Virus record (IMG/VR): IMGVR_UViG_3300010938_000009
Span: 40,284 to 104,283 of that record
Length of the DNA stretch: 64,000 bases
Source of the DNA: a virus
Reading direction: 5' to 3' (one strand)
Positions 7,729 through 50,939 of the stretch are shown here, in pieces. Each line of letters starts with the position of its first letter. The first letter of the stretch is position 1. The position numbers and the translations under genes are program-made. The notes below the pieces were generated by a model. That model ran no database searches and was not told the origin of the DNA. It saw only the letters and a program-made list of their open reading frames with translations.

Positions 7729-8775
7729 TTATACTATACTTTTATTTAGTTTGTCAATAGCTTCTGCAAATATTTCTGTATCTAATCCTAATGAAATTCT
7801 AGCTCTAGTTTTATCTCCAAAATAAACTCCGTCTATAATATTAACTTTAGCTTTTTCAGTAGCTTTAATAAAATTTTTACCTTTCTTTAAAAAGGCGAAC
7901 ATACCATTAGGTTTAATATCATTAGGGTCTAATATCGACTTATCAATTTGTTTTAACTTATTAATATTGACTCCTAGTTTATTTTTACATTGATTATGAA
8001 AGTAGGTTTCAGCGTTAGGATTATTATAGAAGAATACTTCTATATCGTATAATATCTTTTGAGAGAAATCACTTGTACCCATTGTAGTAATTTCTAAGTA
8101 TTCCGACATCTTAGTAGCTAGTTCCTCTGACTCACAAATTGCATAACCTATTCTTAAGCCTGATAATCCGAACTTTTTACTACAGGATACTAAATGTATA
8201 TTACCTTTAACTTCTAGTTTATGATTAGGTAGATATTGTTGACAATAGTAAGCCCCATCAAATATGATAGGTTTATCTGAAGTATAACTTATATAATCTA
8301 TATTACTATCAGGGTTATTAGGAGCTGTAATTAAGCTAAAGTCTGCGGTAGCTTCTTTATGTACCATCTTACAACCTTCTTTATTAATAAGTACAGGAAA
8401 TGATAGCCAATAAGGTTTAGGTACGTATATGTTAGCCTTCTTATCGTCTCTTAAAGCATATATAGCGGCTGATAAGCCTTGTTTAGCCCCGTTAGTAATA
8501 ACTACAGGCTTCTGGTATTTAAAGCTTAGAAATTGCTTTAATTCATCTGTACCTGCTGCTGGAGGGTATTTAGAGTTCCTAGGGTCAAATCTATAGTTTA
8601 GAGTTTCTCCAAATGTAGTTAAAGTCTTCTCTAAGGCTCTCTTAATTATATCAGGTTCGCCTATAGTTAAATTTATAGTACCTTCTGGTAAGGGATTTCT
8701 AGCTAATACTAGATCATTTTTTAGATATTTTACCATTACTGTATGCCGAGTTGTTTTTGCCGGATTTAATTTCAT
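7729..8775 (-). CDS. PLP-dependent class I/II aminotransferase
   Basis: INLTIGEP, TNGAKQGL, PNNP, FDGAY, SCSKKFGLSGLRIGY; likely start MVKYLK. Confidence 0.88.
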   Translation of the reverse strand: MKLNPAKTTRHTVMVKYLKNDLVLARNPLPEGTINLTIGEPDIIKRALEKTLTTFGETLNYRFDPRNSKYPPAAGTDELKQFLSFKYQKPVVITNGAKQGLSAAIYALRDDKKANIYVPKPYWLSFPVLINKEGCKMVHKEATADFSLITAPNNPDSNIDYISYTSDKPIIFDGAYYCQQYLPNHKLEVKGNIHLVSCSKKFGLSGLRIGYAICESEELATKMSEYLEITTMGTSDFSQKILYDIEVFFYNNPNAETYFHNQCKNKLGVNINKLKQIDKSILDPNDIKPNGMFAFLKKGKNFIKATEKAKVNIIDGVYFGDKTRARISLGLDTEIFAEAIDKLNKSIV

Positions 8776-39500: not shown

Positions 39501-40901
39501 CCAATTACCCCGAAGTTATAATAGTATTAGATATGATGCTATTAGAACCTTATGAACCTACCGAATTAGAAAAACTACTCTATTCTTAATCTTATGCTAA
39601 CTTTCCTTAAAATATTTTATAATACAGGTCTAGGTATATTTTACGCTGTAAATAAACTTATTTCTATTAAAAATTACTTTAAATTTCAAATACTTAGGTT
39701 ATTTTATTATATATTAATAAAAACTAAGGGTAAAGCTTTTCCTGAATTTAAAACTGGAGAATATTGTTTTTATTTAGATAGAGATAAAAAAGAACTTATT
39801 CCTGTTGAAATATTAGATTTACGTTGGGAATATAATGAAAACTATGAAATCTACGTTAAAGGTAATTATAAAAATCTTATAGGTTACTATATAAAAGATT
39901 TAAAAATAACTAATAATAGTCAATTATGGGGTAAATTAGCCTACCCTTACGACTTATTAAAAATAAACGACGAAGAACTAATAGATATACTAAAAACTCT
40001 GTATAAAAGGGATTAATGTTTAAAAAAGGCGATTTCATTCACCCTATAGAAGAACAGGTAGAAGCTTTAATAACTACGGGCAAAAGTCAGTATATTCTAC
40101 TTTTCGGGCCTAAAAATATATTTATAGTTCACAGTTTTAATAAATGGCACTTGATATTTCAGTATTTAGATGATAAAACGACTTATATTGAAGGTTTATA
40201 TACTAAGTTCAAACTAGTAGAAGACCCAACTCAATTAGAACTACTACAGGCGTTATATGGACAAGATTACTAAAAGATACGGAGAATACCAAGGCACTAT
40301 TTACGAAATCGTAGGTTACGGTTATTGTAGATTTTGTACTCCTGGTAATGAAAGTCTTTACGAAGGAAATGTTCTGTGTTTTCAACTAAAACCTCTTATT
40401 AGAACTAACCCTAAATCTATTACTACAACTACTACTTATCATGTAAGTGGTGATGCTGTTAGTCATACTGCTACTTATTATCCTAATAGTTCTTTCTACG
40501 TAGAAGAGACTTCAGTTACTGAAATAGAAGACCCTTCTACTATAGAGGCTCTTAACGTATTATATAACCTATAATAACTCTAATAACAAGTATAACCTTT
40601 TATGCATATACAACTAATGTATGAAATGATGGAAGCTGTGTACGATACCTACAAAGATGTAGAAAATACTAGCTTACTAAAGTTTCCTATAAATACTACT
40701 AATACTATAAAAGATTTTAATATAGACGATCATGCTATATGTTGTTATAGTATAGGTAATTACGTTATAGTAGGTTATAATGTAAATAAGTTAGTAGTTC
40801 GTAATATAGAGAAAGGTTATCTTGTTTGCATTTCTCCACGTTTTTTAAAAGTGGTTGAGGACAAAACAGAGCTTTTTAAAGCTATTTACGGTAAAAAGTA
40901 A
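36510..40901 (+). CDS. array of 14 small ORFs, each with a C-terminal xLY motif (36510, 36898, 37296, 37643, 37971, 38263, 38483, 38834, 39093, 39317, 39594, 40016, 40257, 40602)
   Basis: Translationally coupled 76-140 aa ORFs; several have a (F/Y)KxGD SH3/KOW-like start; all carry E/D-L-x-x-x-L-Y near the C-terminus. Confidence 0.75.
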
Positions 40902-42497: not shown

Positions 42498-44099
42498 ATG
42501 CAAGTTCAATATAATACAGAAGGTAAACCTTTAAGAATAAATGAACTCGACATAGAAGGTTTAGCTAAATGGTTATATGAAAATAAAGTTAGAACGACTC
42601 AAGGTAAATTATATCAACCATTACATAAGGGACATTTAGAAGTTTTAAAAGATCCAGCTAGATTCAAAGTTTTAGCTTGCGGTAGAAGATGGGGGAAAAC
42701 TTTATTAACTTCTTTAATGGCTTTAGCTGTTCTGTTTCAAATGAACAGAAGAGTTTGGATTATTGGCCCAGATTATTCTTTGTGTGAAAAGGTTTTTAGA
42801 GAACTTTATAGCATTTTAGTATTACAATTGAAGATTATAGTTCCTGGAAAAAAAGGACGTGCTCGGAACCAAAAAGGGGATTATTACTTAGAAACTCCTT
42901 GGGGAAGCATATTAGAAGCTAAATCAATGGAGAATCCTGACAGTTTAGCAGGAGAAGCGAACGACCTAATTATTATAGATGAAGCAGCTCTTACAACTAA
43001 TTTAGAAAATATATGGGTGCAAATGCTAAATCCGACGTTAATGGATAAAGAAGGTTCAGCAATTTTTATTTCTACACCACGAGGTAAAAATAATTTTTAT
43101 AAACTATTTTTATTTGGTGAAAAAGGTAAACGACAAAGAGAGGGTAAACTTAAAATAACCATAGATCCAGAAACAGGCATTAATAACGATATGACTGAAT
43201 GGAGTAGTTTTCAGAGAACTAGTTACGATAACCCTTTGTTAGCAGCTACGCCAGAAAAATCTAAAAGTGAAATTGATGCTGCTTATAGACGCTCTATAAT
43301 GTCTGGTAAAATAGTCATGTTTAAACAAGAATACTTAGCAGATTTTGAATCAGTTTCTGACAGTTGTTTTCCAGGTTTTAACGTAGAAGCTACTGAAAAA
43401 ATACAATATCCTAATGTAATAGATTATAATTGGCACCCTGATGAAGGCCCAATTTACTCAGCTTGCGATCATAACTTTGCTAAACCAGCAAGTACTATAT
43501 TCGCTCAAGTAAATCAATTTGGAGACGTAGTAATATTTGATGAATATTTTACACCACATACAACCTCCTACATGCAAGCCCAACAAATAGTAGACAAAGA
43601 AAGAGAACTTACAAGAAGAGCTATAAAAATTTGGGACGACGAAGCACAATTATTAAAAAATAGAAGACATATAAAATTTGAAGAAATAATAGCAGATATT
43701 TCAGGAGATCAAGTACAACTACATGGTAGAGCAGCTTGGGATGATTTTGAAGCAGTTTTAGGTAGAAGACCAAAAGGTTTAGCTCAAAATAGAGAAACAG
43801 GTTGTAATATGATAAGACTTTGGTTACAATTTCCAAAGTTTGATCAAAAAGGACAGCCAGTATTCGACAAAAACAACGAACAAGAAACTTACCCTAAATT
43901 ATTTGTTTCTAGTAATTGTACTAATTTAATTTACGCTTTAAGTACTGCTAAGTTCAAAAAAGGAAACGGCGGCAACTTAAAAGAAGATTATGAAGAAACT
44001 CCAGAAGGTTACGAAGGTTTAATTGATGCTTTACGTTATTTAATAGTATACTTATTTCACAATAAGGGTAATTACGTAGAAGTTTACAAAGGATTTTAA
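42498..44099 (+). CDS. terL: terminase large subunit
   Basis: ACGRRWGKT Walker A, IIIDEAA Walker B, ISTPRG, QEYLADF, nuclease DHNF...DALRY. Confidence 0.93.
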   Translation: MQVQYNTEGKPLRINELDIEGLAKWLYENKVRTTQGKLYQPLHKGHLEVLKDPARFKVLACGRRWGKTLLTSLMALAVLFQMNRRVWIIGPDYSLCEKVFRELYSILVLQLKIIVPGKKGRARNQKGDYYLETPWGSILEAKSMENPDSLAGEANDLIIIDEAALTTNLENIWVQMLNPTLMDKEGSAIFISTPRGKNNFYKLFLFGEKGKRQREGKLKITIDPETGINNDMTEWSSFQRTSYDNPLLAATPEKSKSEIDAAYRRSIMSGKIVMFKQEYLADFESVSDSCFPGFNVEATEKIQYPNVIDYNWHPDEGPIYSACDHNFAKPASTIFAQVNQFGDVVIFDEYFTPHTTSYMQAQQIVDKERELTRRAIKIWDDEAQLLKNRRHIKFEEIIADISGDQVQLHGRAAWDDFEAVLGRRPKGLAQNRETGCNMIRLWLQFPKFDQKGQPVFDKNNEQETYPKLFVSSNCTNLIYALSTAKFKKGNGGNLKEDYEETPEGYEGLIDALRYLIVYLFHNKGNYVEVYKGF

Positions 44100-45183: not shown

Positions 45184-45251
45184 CCTCATAATAAGATACA
45201 CGATGGACAGTAGAGCTGTTCGACCTGTTCCTTGAGAGGAAAGGAGGAAAA

Positions 45252-48200
45252 TTGAGTTTTAACCTAGGCGTGTCTAATCATCCAACGAGTAGATTAGGCG
45301 GATTAAGTTCTGTAGGGATTTATCTTTACGAAGATATTTACTATAGACAGTGGATCAGTGAGATCGCCTTGGCCTTTTATGAAGGTGAATATATCGGCCT
45401 TCGCTTTAAGTAATTAAAGAGTTATGATGCGACAAGACGAATTAAGATAAGTTCGTCGGTAACGAAAGTTACAAAAATAATATAAATAACCACAAAATGT
45501 TATCTGGTTAGACTTAGAGTAAGACAGTTTCGTAATCCTGAGAAAATTTAAAAACTGTTTACTGAGTCTCTAAAATGGGGTGAATTGCTGGAAACTCCTA
45601 AAACTCACATAGCTACAAAGTAAATCGAAAGATTAAGCTTGACATGCTAGAGAATATGTGAGATACTCCTTAAAAGGTGTAATGGATAATCAGCAGCTAA
45701 GCGTAGTAGGGTTTAAGTTACTGCGAAAGTTCAACGACTAGAAGGTGAGTCCCAACAATAAGTCCTTCCTGAGAGTGCCCGATCCTGACCGAGTAAAGTC
45801 GAAGGATAAGATATAGTCTACTCCTATTTGAAAAAAGAGGTATATGATTAACGTAAAAAAATTAAAAAGTTCCGAATTAGATTCCGCCATATATGGTATG
45901 ATTCTAGGTGATGGATGTATACAAATGGCTAGTTCTGGAAAAGGAAATAGCAATTTAAAAATAGGACATTCAATAAAACAAGAAGAGTATTTAAAATGGA
46001 AACAAGAGATTGTAAATCAAATTGGAACGGTAAAAACTAGATTTTGGTATTATCAAAAACAAAACGCTTGTTATATAGAAACCAACACTAGAAACTACTT
46101 TACTAAATTAGAAAAAATATTTTATATTAACAGAAAAAAAACTATTAATAAAAAAATATTGAATAAATTAACAGATTTATCTTTAGCTATATGGTTTTTA
46201 GATAATGGTTATATGAGTTATAATAAATCTGGTTCTGTTTACGGAGAACTCTGTACAGATCAATTTAGTTTAGAAAAAGTACAATTAATAAAAGATTGGT
46301 TTAAAATTAAATTTAATATGGAAGTTGGTATTAGAACTTTACGATATTTAAGCGGCAAACAAAAAGATACTATAGCTTATAGAATAAAGTTTAACAAAGA
46401 AAACTGTATTAAATTAACAGAAATAATTAAACCTTATGTTAATCAAGTGAGTTGTATGCACTATAAATTATACGAGAATAAAATTGCTTCTCAGGCAGTA
46501 GAGAAATCTTCTGTGCAAAAATCTGTTATTGAAGCAACAGATACTACCACTTAATCTTACTAAAGAGATTATAGATGAAACCTCTATACTATATAGAGAA
46601 GATCCTATATATCAAGTAGTAGATGATAAGGGTAAGATATTAAAAAAAGATCAAGAATTATGGGAGCAAATCCAAAAGGATTCTCGCTACTTGACCTTTA
46701 TGGACAAACTTGATAGATGGGTACGACTACTAGGTACCGTACTAGTTAAAGTTTCTTTTGTAGATCCGCAGACTGGACTACTAGTAGATAAAAATAAAGA
46801 AGGTACTGTACAACTGGATATGCTACATGGCGGCGTATACGATATAAGACATGGAGCTTCTCCCTACTATATTACAGAATTACTTATAGGTTTTGGCACT
46901 AAATTTGGAGGATTCAGAGAAAGATCTGGAACTCAAATTATAGGCGGATCACTTACAGGTAAATTACCTGATCCTAGTAGTATGGGGCAAGCCGACATAA
47001 AAACACGACAACGAATTGATTCTCCAGGACAATTAGGTTCAGTTAATAGAATTTATTGGAGTGCTCACTCACATTACGTTGAGGACGAAGATAGTAAGTA
47101 TTACGAAACTAAAAATCCTTATGGAATAATTCCTGCTGTGCCGTTTTTTAATCAAGACCCAGCTCACTATTACTTTTTACCAATTAATGAACCTCTTATT
47201 TACGCTAATCATGCGACTAATATGAGGATTACAGATTTGAATCATATTGCTAAGTTTCAATCGTTTGGAGTACCTGTAGTAAGTGGTATCGAAAGACCTA
47301 CTTCACTAAGACAAGGTAGACCTGTAGACGATTTTAACGTATTAAAAGGTGGTACAGCTCAATCTAGATTTGGTGGAATTAGTGGTTTTGGAGCTAACGG
47401 ACAATTTAGAACCTTTGACCAAGGTTTAGGAGTAACAAGAGATGGAAACGCTGATGCTAATGCATTAGGTTTTTCTATTGGACCTGATACTGCTATAGCT
47501 GTTGGAGAAAAAGGGGATTTTAGATTTGAACACCCTTCTGCAGATATTACAGGCTTAATTAAGGTTATACATAGTATAACTGATATGGTTAGAATTAACC
47601 ACGGATTAAGACCTAAATATGAAAATACATTACCTTCATCAGGTTTTGCATTATTAATGGAGAAGATTGGTGTTATAGAAAATAATATTAGAAGAGGTAA
47701 ACTCTTTAAAGAAAGAGAAGAACAACTTTTCAATGTTATTAAGAATTTGTGGAATGTACATCATAATAAATCAGGAAGTAAAAGGTTTTCTGAAAAAGCT
47801 AAGTTAATTATAACTTACGTTAATCCTAAATTTCCAGTTGACCCTAAAACTGAAAAAGAAGATATTATGATGGAAAGTAAAATAGTAGAAACTGGAGACA
47901 GAGCTGCTATTAAAAGAATGTATCCACACATAAAAGAACCAGAAATAGATAAATTAATTATACAAGCAAGAAAAGATAAAGAAGAAAGATCCTTATTTGA
48001 AGCTGAACTTCAAGCCAAGGTTACTGAGATTATAGGACCTAAAGAAGATCCTAAAAATCCTGGAGCTAAACATAAATATTTAAGAAAATCTAAAGAAGCA
48101 GAAAGCGACAAAGAAACTTATATTTATGAAGACGAAGACGGAAAAGAAAAAGAAGTCAAAAGATTAGATAAGAGTAAGGAAAAACTAGGTAAGCCTAAGA

Positions 48201-48280
48201 TCGATAATAAAGCAAAACACGCTGAAGAAAGTTCTAAGCAACCTGGTAAAAATGGTGATCCAAGAAGAAAAGAGGAGTAA
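45252..48280 (+). CDS. portal protein, spliced from 5 exons (45252-45386, 45430-45442, 45500-45515, 45518-45542, 46532-48280; ~645 aa)
   Basis: AGGAGG SD + TTG start. The joined exons read ...ALAFYEG-RQDEFIWLDLVRQFRNPE-KQQILPLNLTKEIIDETSILY. Exon 5 has SPP1-like portal motifs (NPYGIIPAVPF, SGFALL). Position after terL. Confidence 0.8.
45387..45429 (+). ncRNA. core-less group I-like mini-intron A (43 nt)
   Basis: P1 GAAGGU/GCCUUC with U.G at the 5' site, P10 CGA/UCG, CUUUAA-GUAA-UUAAAG hairpin, terminal G. Confidence 0.7.
45443..45499 (+). ncRNA. core-less group I-like mini-intron B (57 nt)
   Basis: P1 GACGAAU/GUUCGUC with U.G, P10 UUAUCU/AGAUAA, GUAAC-GAAA-GUUAC hairpin, terminal G. Confidence 0.75.
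45543..46531 (+). mobile_element. group I intron (IA-like) carrying a LAGLIDADG ORF
   Basis: P GAAUUGCUGGAAA (45582), Q AAUCAGCAG (45688), R GUUCAACGACUA (45729), S AAGAUAUAGUC (45808), P7.1 GAAGG/CCUUC. Exact ends could shift 3 nt (45546-46534) with the same protein product. Confidence 0.88.
45844..46554 (+). CDS. intron-encoded LAGLIDADG homing endonuclease/maturase
   Basis: IYGMILGDGCI and LAIWFLDNGY motifs. Confidence 0.88.
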   Translation: MINVKKLKSSELDSAIYGMILGDGCIQMASSGKGNSNLKIGHSIKQEEYLKWKQEIVNQIGTVKTRFWYYQKQNACYIETNTRNYFTKLEKIFYINRKKTINKKILNKLTDLSLAIWFLDNGYMSYNKSGSVYGELCTDQFSLEKVQLIKDWFKIKFNMEVGIRTLRYLSGKQKDTIAYRIKFNKENCIKLTEIIKPYVNQVSCMHYKLYENKIASQAVEKSSVQKSVIEATDTTT

Positions 48281-49616: not shown

Positions 49617-50939
49617 ATGGCTCAAGTAATTTCATTATCCGATGCAGCGAAACTTTCTAACAACATGCTTGTTGAAGGTATTATCGCAGACATCATTTCA
49701 ATAGATGATTGGTTCAAATACCTTCCTTTCGTAGTTTTCGAGGGGTTGGCTTACACGTTCACTAGAGAGGCTACTCTTGCTGCGGCAGATTTCGCTTCCC
49801 CAGGAACTAACTTAAATCAATCAAAATACCAAGCTGGAGCTTCTTTCCAGAATGTAAACGTAAATTTATCTGCTATCATTGCAGATATTATCATCGACGG
49901 TCAAATTGAAGATCAATTCAGCGAGACTAACGATCAATTACAAGTTCAAATTAGCTCAAAAGCTAAACAACTTGCACGTATTTACATGAATGCTATCATC
50001 AATGCTAAAAGATCTGCTTCTCTTACTCAGAGTAACAATGGTCCTATAGGTATTGCTGACAGATTTCACGGAATGGCTTCTATTTTAGATGCTGAATCAG
50101 GAAATGTTGATGATGTAAATCATCCATTTTACAATGCTGGTAATCCTACTCAAACAGAAGTACTAGTTGAAGACGACCCTTCTTCTCCTCGAAACGGGAA
50201 GAATGGTAGAGTTTTTACTCTAGAAGATCTGGATGCTCTAATCGATAGAGTAACTGTAGGTCGTCCTGATTTTATCATGATGCATTCACGAGATATCCGA
50301 ACACTAAGAGTTTTGATGAGAAACACTGGTGGCGGTACAGATGCATACATGCTACAACAACAAGGTCTTGGTAACATGAAGCCTATGCTTTATTATCAAG
50401 ATATTCCAGTTTTCAGAAATGATTTCATTTCTAAATCTGATCCAGTAAACAGTACTGTACATACTATCTCTTCTGTTACAGATGCTAATACTATCGTACT
50501 AAGTTCTGCTACTGCTGCTGATGCAGAACACCTTCTTCTTAGAGGGTCTGATGGCGTTAATTATAGATATGCTATTGCTTCAGGTGCCGGAACTGCTACT
50601 ATTGACGTAGCTTCTGTTTCTGGTTCTTTCTTTGATCCGGAGCAAAATAAACAAGTAGCTCGACAAGCTCTTAACACTGCAGGATTATTTCTTGCTGGCG
50701 CTCAAGCTATCTCTGCTGAAAGAATTGATGGATCTTCCATCTATTGTGGATGTTGGGGAGAGTTTAAAGGGGTTGTAGGTTTTACTTCTGCTAACAACGC
50801 AGGATTGAAACTTGAGTACGTAGGTCCTCGTGAGAACGAAAACGCTTACCAATATCGTATGAAATGGTATTGTGGATTTGACTTATACAATCGTTTAGCT
50901 TTAGCGAGAATTAAAGAAGCATTACCACTTGGTGCGTAA
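49617..50939 (+). CDS. major capsid protein (HK97 fold) with beta-rich insertion
   Basis: LPFVVFEG..YTFTRE, LEDLDALID, DFIMM, YQDIPVFRNDFI, YRMKWYCG..LARI; codon usage consistent with high expression. Confidence 0.85.
   Translation: MAQVISLSDAAKLSNNMLVEGIIADIISIDDWFKYLPFVVFEGLAYTFTREATLAAADFASPGTNLNQSKYQAGASFQNVNVNLSAIIADIIIDGQIEDQFSETNDQLQVQISSKAKQLARIYMNAIINAKRSASLTQSNNGPIGIADRFHGMASILDAESGNVDDVNHPFYNAGNPTQTEVLVEDDPSSPRNGKNGRVFTLEDLDALIDRVTVGRPDFIMMHSRDIRTLRVLMRNTGGGTDAYMLQQQGLGNMKPMLYYQDIPVFRNDFISKSDPVNSTVHTISSVTDANTIVLSSATAADAEHLLLRGSDGVNYRYAIASGAGTATIDVASVSGSFFDPEQNKQVARQALNTAGLFLAGAQAISAERIDGSSIYCGCWGEFKGVVGFTSANNAGLKLEYVGPRENENAYQYRMKWYCGFDLYNRLALARIKEALPLGA

Follow-up and report, generated by a model that had tools for sequence, protein, structure and literature searches.

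A two-nucleotide insert in a phage portal gene as a probable group I-type intron served by the ribozyme of a neighbouring intron

The DNA analyzed here (the window) is a stretch of 64,000 nucleotides (nt) covering positions 40,284 to 104,283 of the phage record IMGVR_UViG_3300010938_000009, which measures 104,283 bp, has a G+C content of about 30% and carries direct terminal repeats. Its portal gene is broken into several pieces, and one of the inserts between them is only two nucleotides long. This dinucleotide, AG at 45516-45517, is probably a group I-type intron that is removed by ribozyme excision, and the probability of this reading is put at roughly 0.6. The catalyst would be the core of the large group I intron that interrupts the same gene downstream, and a guide at the 5' end of that intron would hold the exon sequence on both sides of the AG.

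The portal gene is located 3' of the large terminase gene (42498-44099) and 5' of the major head protein gene (49617-50939). The open reading frame (ORF) called as portal, 46529-48280, has hundreds of homologues of 600-650 amino acids, but their first 64 residues (MSFNLG..AFYEG RQDEF I/VWLDL VRQFRNPEK QQILP) are not contained in it. This N-terminus is present in the window, split into pieces upstream of the called ORF. When the pieces are joined without the AG, a single frame of 645 amino acids is obtained; when the AG is kept, the product ends with ..WLDLE at a stop codon. The portal gene is the only one in the whole 104-kb genome, and so is the group I core at 45574-45840, which means that the AG must be removed or bypassed. 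The parts of the locus are as follows.

45252-45386, + strand: portal exon 1, with a TTG start after AAAGGAGG and an end at ..AFYEG (GGT), placed by tblastn against intron-less homologues and by the joined frame
45387-45429, + strand: core-less mini-intron A, 43 nt, with P1 GAAGGU/GCCUUC including a U.G pair, and a terminal G
45430-45442, + strand: exon 2, CGACAAGACGAAT, encoding RQDE and the first base of F; the same 13 letters stand between the joints of the X2 contig described below
45443-45499, + strand: core-less mini-intron B, 57 nt, with P1 GACGAAU/GUUCGUC including a U.G pair, P10 UUAUCU/AGAUAA, a GAAA-capped hairpin and a terminal G
45500-45515, + strand: exon 3, whose last six bases AGACUU (45510-45515) form the 5' strand of P1; U45515 is the proposed 5' splice site
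45516-45517, + strand: proposed AG micro-intron, following U45515, with G45517 as proposed terminal (omega) G
45518-45542, + strand: exon 4, A GTA AGA CAG TTT CGT AAT CCT GAG, of which 45518-45522 and 45524-45530 pair P10-like with the guide
45543-46531, + strand: large group I intron, 989 nt, ending in G46531, with the 5' splice site after G45542 rather than U and the junction set by homologues
45552-45569, + strand: 5' guide at the canonical internal-guide position, in which 45564-45569 (GAGUCU) is the 3' strand of P1 and 45552-45563 the P10 strand
45574-45840, + strand: P3-P9 catalytic core of the large intron; the genome has no second core of the group I type
45844-46554, + strand: intron-encoded LAGLIDADG homing endonuclease ORF (Pfam PF03161, E = 8e-34)
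46484-46495, + strand: 3' guide UUGCUUCUCAGG, fully complementary to CCUGAG-AAGCAA, the ligated junction of exons 4 and 5
46532-48280, + strand: portal exon 5, KQQILP... to the stop

Exon 3 ends with ..TGG TTA GAC TT (45515), after which come the AG and, from A45518, exon 4. Without excision the site reads TTA GAG TAA, and the in-frame TAA that a first-pass annotation, made from the sequence alone, had attributed to the AG is indeed found at 45520-45522. The AG-retaining form of the exon 3/exon 4 stretch is TTAGAGTAAG and the joined form without AG is TTAGTAAG. The insert can be described equally well as AG or as GA (45517-45518), and the group I rule, by which an intron follows a U paired with a G of its guide and ends in G, fits AG only. 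The preceding U and the final G pointed out by the annotation are both in place (U45515, G45517), the latter as a terminal G under the AG description. An exact-pattern search of IMG/VR for the AG-bearing or the AG-less exon gave no match, nor did megablast and tblastn searches of a phage GenBank collection with the portal locus.

As the window derives from a single metagenome assembly, the AG might be a sequencing or assembly error that is absent from the phage DNA. This is highly improbable, since an independent Logan contig from another run (X1) that spans 45445-45596 retains the AG together with insert B, and has differences of its own, namely T>C at 45533 and the loss of one nucleotide at 45577. 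T>C at 45281 is seen in another X1 contig. The presence of the AG in a second, diverged data set indicates that the allele is genomic and has been propagated through some divergence, which answers the concern of the annotation that the dinucleotide might not be in the DNA. The 1-nt deletion falls within the GGGG run that constitutes the 5' strand of P3, leaving a run of three G in the ribozyme of that strain.

The frame that is restored without the AG has been conserved. Joined across it, exons 2-4 encode RQDEFIWLDLVRQFRNPE. Compared with the corresponding exons of the portal locus L081 (described below), they show 12 synonymous differences and not one amino-acid change; compared with five other phages, they show 9-13 synonymous differences and 1-3 changed codons, some of which are I/V alternatives or junction artefacts. 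Judged from these substitution patterns, the joined frame is under purifying selection, and a joined frame under selection requires that the AG be neutralised during expression.

The guide AAACTGTTTACTGAGTCT, located at 45552-45569 within the large intron, could bring the two flanks of the AG together. All 18 base pairs named in the annotation, U45515.G45564 included, were confirmed base by base: 45510-45515 pair with 45569-45564, 45518-45522 with 45563-45559 and 45524-45530 with 45558-45552. The first of these segments is a P1 helix of 6 bp (AGACUU/GAGUCU) closed by U45515.G45564, and the others form a P10-like pairing (AGUAA/UUACU) extended by ACAGUUU/AAACUGU. Deletion of the AG strengthens the pairing with the guide from -17.4 to -21.6 kcal/mol. 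In the window, 9 nt separate the guide GAGUCU from the downstream GGUGAAUUGCUGG, just as 9 nt separate GCCCUC, the guide of the canonical intron of the relatives L005 and L015, from the downstream CGUUAAUUGCUGG. The distance from wobble G to core thus equals that of a canonical intron, in agreement with the earlier statement that this guide sits where the internal guide sequence of the large intron would be expected, and U45515.G45564 would be presented to the core like an ordinary 5' splice site.

Comparison with relatives was based on 60 related portal loci from IMG/VR, to which more were added by pattern search. Most of these loci are uninterrupted. Full-size introns occur between AFYEG and RQDEF in L005, L007, L008 and L015, which is the site of the 43-nt insert of the window, and at NP(E)(K) in L013, L021, L026-28, L027, L043 and L081, which is the site of its large intron. 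Throughout the large-intron family, the LVRQ codons, located 12-25 nt before the 5' splice site, form a helix with an intron segment that precedes P3. This segment is AAACUGUUUACUGAGUCU in the window, UUGACGAAC in L027, UGACGUACGA in L043, GUACAAG in L021 and AUUGACUGCGAGAU in L081. Among seven phages, the cognate exon-guide duplexes have a mean of -14.6 kcal/mol vs -10.7 kcal/mol for non-cognate ones, and the true assignment of exons to guides is the best of all 5040 permutations, which argues that the helix has been selected.

Short inserts without a core were also found in the relatives, with 35 nt in L021 (1939-1973), 36 nt in L027 (about 1873-1908) and 35 nt in L081 (reverse strand, about 8281-8314), always with a large intron downstream. 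Each of them is preceded by a U paired with a G in an insert-internal guide and has a terminal G. Together with inserts A and B of the window, they represent core-less mini-introns of 35-57 nt that have their own P1 with a U.G pair, a short P10 and a terminal G and in every case precede a full intron of the gene they interrupt. Mini-intron A shares its site with the full-size introns of L005, L007 and L015 and with the 35-nt mini-intron of L021, and P1 shows a compensatory change between the two short forms (GAGGGU/GCCCUC in L021 vs GAAGGU/GCCUUC in the window). The L021 insert consists of the first 28 nt of an L005-type intron and a short tail, which identifies it as a deletion derivative.

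A second micro-insert was recognized in L081 (Ga0114931_10012306), a locus from a different metagenome whose portal N-terminus differs from that of the window at many synonymous positions. Here the hexamer AAAAUG, at about 8375-8385 on the reverse strand, separates the V and R codons of LDLVRQ. The exon reads GAU CUC GU-AAAAUG-A CGU CAA, so that the 6-nt insert, which brings an in-frame TGA, stands one codon downstream of the AG site of the window; its wider context is CUCGU-AAAAUG-ACGUCAAU. The guide AUUGAC-U-GCGAGAU pairs with both flanks, AUCUCGU with GCGAGAU and GUCAAU with AUUGAC. This helix has a single wobble, the U.G where the cut is proposed, and G is the last base of the insert. When every possible hexamer is deleted in turn, the guide is matched best after loss of the predicted one. 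As the insert coincides with the one wobble among 13 bp and has a terminal G under one of two equivalent descriptions, L081 may be taken to pass the group I rule at about the 1-in-100 level, which is a rough estimate. Degenerate pattern scans of the metagenome set, IMG/VR and genome contigs gave L081 as the only new informative locus; the other new matches in the metagenome set and IMG/VR, and all five of the five matches in genome contigs, are chance.

Neutralisation of the AG could alternatively be achieved at translation, with the dinucleotide staying in the mRNA and the ribosome shifting by -1 (or +2) at UUA GAG UAA to give LDL-R-VRQ or LDL-E-VRQ. The frame change required is indeed -1/+2, the shift point is immediately followed by a stop codon and the site is covered by an RNA helix. 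Nevertheless, such recoding is quite unlikely. The site, C UUA GAG UAA, contains no slippery heptamer X XXY YYZ, and the product would have an extra residue in a block that is free of length variation in 13 aligned homologues. The stop-rich inserts of 43 and 57 nt that lie 17-130 nt upstream would stay unexplained and need removal from the RNA anyway, as would the TGA-containing 6-nt insert of L081 and the coincidence of the U.G wobble and terminal G with the insert in both phages. Two special forms of recoding were rejected. Bypassing of the T4 gene 60 type lacks matched take-off and landing codons, there being no repeated codon across the gap in UUA-AG-A GUA, and an alternative genetic code does not apply, because the window case is a frameshift and not a stop, and the 214 portal codons on the L081 contig are without in-frame stop.

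The large intron itself, judged by sequence complementarity, seems to be excised with a second guide close to its 3' end rather than with the 5' guide. Such 3' guides were found 30-70 nt before the 3' splice site in L027, L021, L043, L013, L026 and L081 as well as in the window (46484-46495). They are complementary to the ligated exon 4/exon 5 junction (12 of 12 positions in the window), are followed by a GAAA-capped hairpin and show covariation with the junction across seven phages (2 of 5040 permutations), suggestive of successive use of two guides by the core. The base at the 5' splice site and its partner in the 3' guide are U.G in L021 and L043, G-C in the window and L027 and A-U in L013 and L081. 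On this evidence, non-U 5' splice sites seem to be tolerated in the family, which is unusual for group I introns.

The following pathway is proposed. In the pre-mRNA, the 5' guide (45552-45569) would form P1 with the end of exon 3 (AGACUU/GAGUCU, the cut lying at U45515.G45564), and P10 with its extension would join it to the first bases of exon 4. P1 would dock in the resident core (45574-45840), and a guanosine would attack after U45515. G45517 would then enter the guanosine site as terminal G while P10 holds exon 4, U45515 would be joined to A45518 and the trinucleotide GAG would be released, by which ..GAC TTA GTA AGA.. is restored and the TAA disappears. The nucleophile of the first step may be free guanosine or, as in engineered ribozymes, the intron's own terminal G. 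Mini-introns A and B (43 and 57 nt) would probably be removed by the same core, and the large intron would leave last via the second guide at 46484-46495. The first-pass annotation had presented the AG as a 2-nt intron and a natural equivalent of engineered trans-excision-splicing (TES); anatomy, spacing, covariation and L081 speak for this, whereas we infer from them the removal on RNA, the catalysis by this core, the order of steps and the first nucleophile.

A more general scheme, to which we give even odds, is a ribozyme with two guides. The 3'-end guide would excise the intron, which leaves the 5' guide free to hold the upstream exon, and small inserts that follow a U.G pair and end in G would be spliced out with it. 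Decaying introns could then shrink harmlessly to 6 or 2 nt, and the AG would be the smallest natural intron as well as a case of ribozyme-catalysed, guide-directed deletion editing of an mRNA.

Several observations weigh against the AG as an excised intron. First, the annotation had described the AG as looped out of the helix. Such a register exists, but at -13.2 kcal/mol it lies 1.1 kcal/mol above the best fold (-14.3 kcal/mol), in which A45516-G45517 pair with U45563-C45562 and AGUA is looped out instead; U45515.G45564 is retained in both registers, and a looped-out AG is no necessary feature of the ground state. The stability of the hairpin is within chance (z = -1.15 vs shuffles), with 10.7% of all 73-nt windows of this DNA folding as well. 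Folding energy was therefore rejected as evidence, and the case cannot rest on it; the support comes from comparison with relatives. Second, that comparison rests on seven phages and two micro-inserts, and because the rule was framed on the window, L081 is its only independent test. Third, one core using two guides in succession has no described natural precedent, and the 5' splice site after G places the large intron in an unusual family to which the textbook rules may not apply.

Fourth, the exon-guide helix is also formed in relatives without the insert (L027, L043, L021, L013), which indicates a function independent of the AG; as far as these sequences go, the guide helix is a family feature and does not exist for the AG. 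It could merely anchor the 5' exon to the large intron, with the AG removed on the RNA by another agent, such as a protein enzyme of host or phage or a ribozyme on another transcript. We regard this as very unlikely, as the genome contains no other group I core and an anchoring role alone would not explain why wobble, terminal G and canonical spacing coincide in two phages. In the insert-free relatives, the guide helix has no U.G with a usable preceding P1.

Evidence that counts on both sides comes from the run X2, the library of which is labelled 'METAGENOMIC RNA-Seq cDNA' and which is nevertheless rated 'RNA? (probably DNA)'. One X2 contig of 257 nt consists of 45209-45386, CGACAAGACGAAT, 45500-45515 and 45518-45565, and thus is without insert A, insert B and the AG. 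Its exons 2-3 are identical to the window letter by letter, and like the AG-bearing X1 contigs it has C at 45281 and at 45533, plus one further substitution. It retains the first 23 nt of the large intron and may be DNA of an insert-free sister strain. Of the two origins, RNA is rated the likelier. If it is RNA, the contig is a partly processed precursor, the intermediate that the excision model predicts, with the small introns out first and the large one last. The annotation had suggested looking for cDNA that lacks the AG; an AG-less contig from a cDNA-labelled library was found, which, given the rating of the run, may or may not be RNA of an AG-bearing genome. For this stretch no RNA data set is listed, and the runs X1-X3 hold only small shares of it; for instance, 45837-46650 is without cover in X2.

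Taken as DNA, the X2 form would suit the explanation that the AG is an uncorrected frameshift, so that functional phages lack it and genomes with it are defective or depend on a helper. The lineage is also poorly sampled, as a set of 5.8 billion proteins contains no protein more than 70% identical to the window portal. Still, a defective allele is unlikely. The AG is shared by two data sets despite substitutions and an indel between them, and hence has been propagated; the record has direct terminal repeats and a single portal gene; and the exon pieces are free of amino-acid decay. A sister strain would have to have lost exactly 43, 57 and 2 nt at three places in otherwise near-identical sequence with exons 2-3 unchanged, and judged by their sequences, conversion from any of the relatives compared would not yield the X2 form. 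In addition, interrupted portal genes recur in the unrelated phages L021, L027 and L081.

Among the known systems closest to an excised AG are engineered TES ribozymes. Derived from Pneumocystis, Tetrahymena and Candida group I introns, these bind a substrate through P1 and P10, excise a short bridge that is preceded by U and has G as its last or only base, even when it is a single nucleotide, and join the flanks (PMC2532722). As even one G can be excised, two nucleotides are sterically feasible. The AG likewise follows a U and ends in G, and the core could bind both its flanks through P1 and P10 of one guide. TES, however, is man-made and works in trans on a separate substrate, with the 3'-terminal G of the ribozyme as first nucleophile (PMC2532722), whereas the AG arrangement is natural and its substrate is the ribozyme's own upstream exon, 30-60 nt away on the same transcript. 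The group I 'spliceozyme', an engineered Tetrahymena variant, removes an intron from a pre-mRNA in trans (PMC4094466). There too a single core removes a core-less segment defined by short recognition helices at both ends, but the spliceozyme is a separate, engineered RNA and its introns are far longer than 2 nt.

Canonical phage group I introns (RF00028), such as the IA2-type introns of Twort-like Staphylococcus phages and those of T4, are matched by the resident intron, which also has a LAGLIDADG ORF, and their rules for the P1 U.G pair, terminal G and P10 fit the AG: its 5' site follows a U in a U.G pair with the guide, it ends in G and P10 pairing is present. In contrast to them, the AG, at 2 nt, has no catalytic core P3-P9 of its own and is not self-contained, and the resident intron has its 5' splice site after G and a guide near its 3' end that matches the ligated junction. 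Degenerate group I introns in lichen rDNA are not self-splicing and yet are removed in vivo (PMC8527467). Like inserts A and B, they combine group I splice-site helices without a core with catalysis from outside, and by this analogy they are the nearest natural counterparts. The mini-introns A and B carry their own guide in a local P1 hairpin, whereas the AG has no room for one and would use the guide of the large intron. Programmed frameshifting and T4 gene 60 bypassing resemble the AG case in that expression of an essential phage gene copes with an insert that breaks its frame; they differ by their slippery sequences or matched take-off and landing codons, which the AG site lacks, and the neighbouring inserts and L081 argue for removal at the RNA level. 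A search of full-text literature found no natural micro-intron of this kind and no core-less intron served by a neighbour.

If the AG is indeed excised in this way, it would provide a natural counterpart to TES, which is known only from ribozyme engineering, and the lower size limit of introns would fall to two nucleotides. One core serving several pairs of splice sites by means of different guides would take a self-splicing intron a step closer to a splicing machine used in common. A similar step has been argued for group II introns and the spliceosome. For annotation, it would follow that frameshifts and short stop-bearing inserts beside phage group I introns should not be recorded as pseudogenes or sequencing errors.

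The large intron gives an Rfam RF00028 match at 45522-45840 (57.7 bits) that surfaces only with laxer filters, the Rfam gathering thresholds having missed the intron in a scan of the whole window; over P3-P5 it shares about 80% similarity with introns of the Twort-like phages of Staphylococcus. The LAGLIDADG ORF overruns the 3' splice site at 46531 by 23 nt into exon 5, and its last codons and stop therefore exist only in unspliced RNA.

In L043 (position 3000), and also in L069, an extra base in portal exon 5 (ATT CTG a CCC, or CU-G-ACCC) causes a frameshift 18 nt downstream of the 3' splice site. It was considered as a third micro-intron and not counted, since no guide for it was better than shuffled controls. 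The independent ENA contig L082 stops short of the position, and the base may be an assembly error or an unexplained recoding.

Short N-terminal portal ORFs in other assemblies (P0121, P0122, P0125, P0126 and P0129) break off after QFR, AFYEG, RQWI and YLYED, and P0125 shows in-frame read-through of a 36-nt insert; by their sequences, these ORFs point to further insertion sites and mini-inserts. A group I intron of 300 nt without an ORF is present at another portal site, after ..SIGI, in L036 (2583-2883). It has a canonical 5' guide (GGAAUU/GAAUUCC), and its GAAA-capped P2 resembles the hairpin of mini-intron B.

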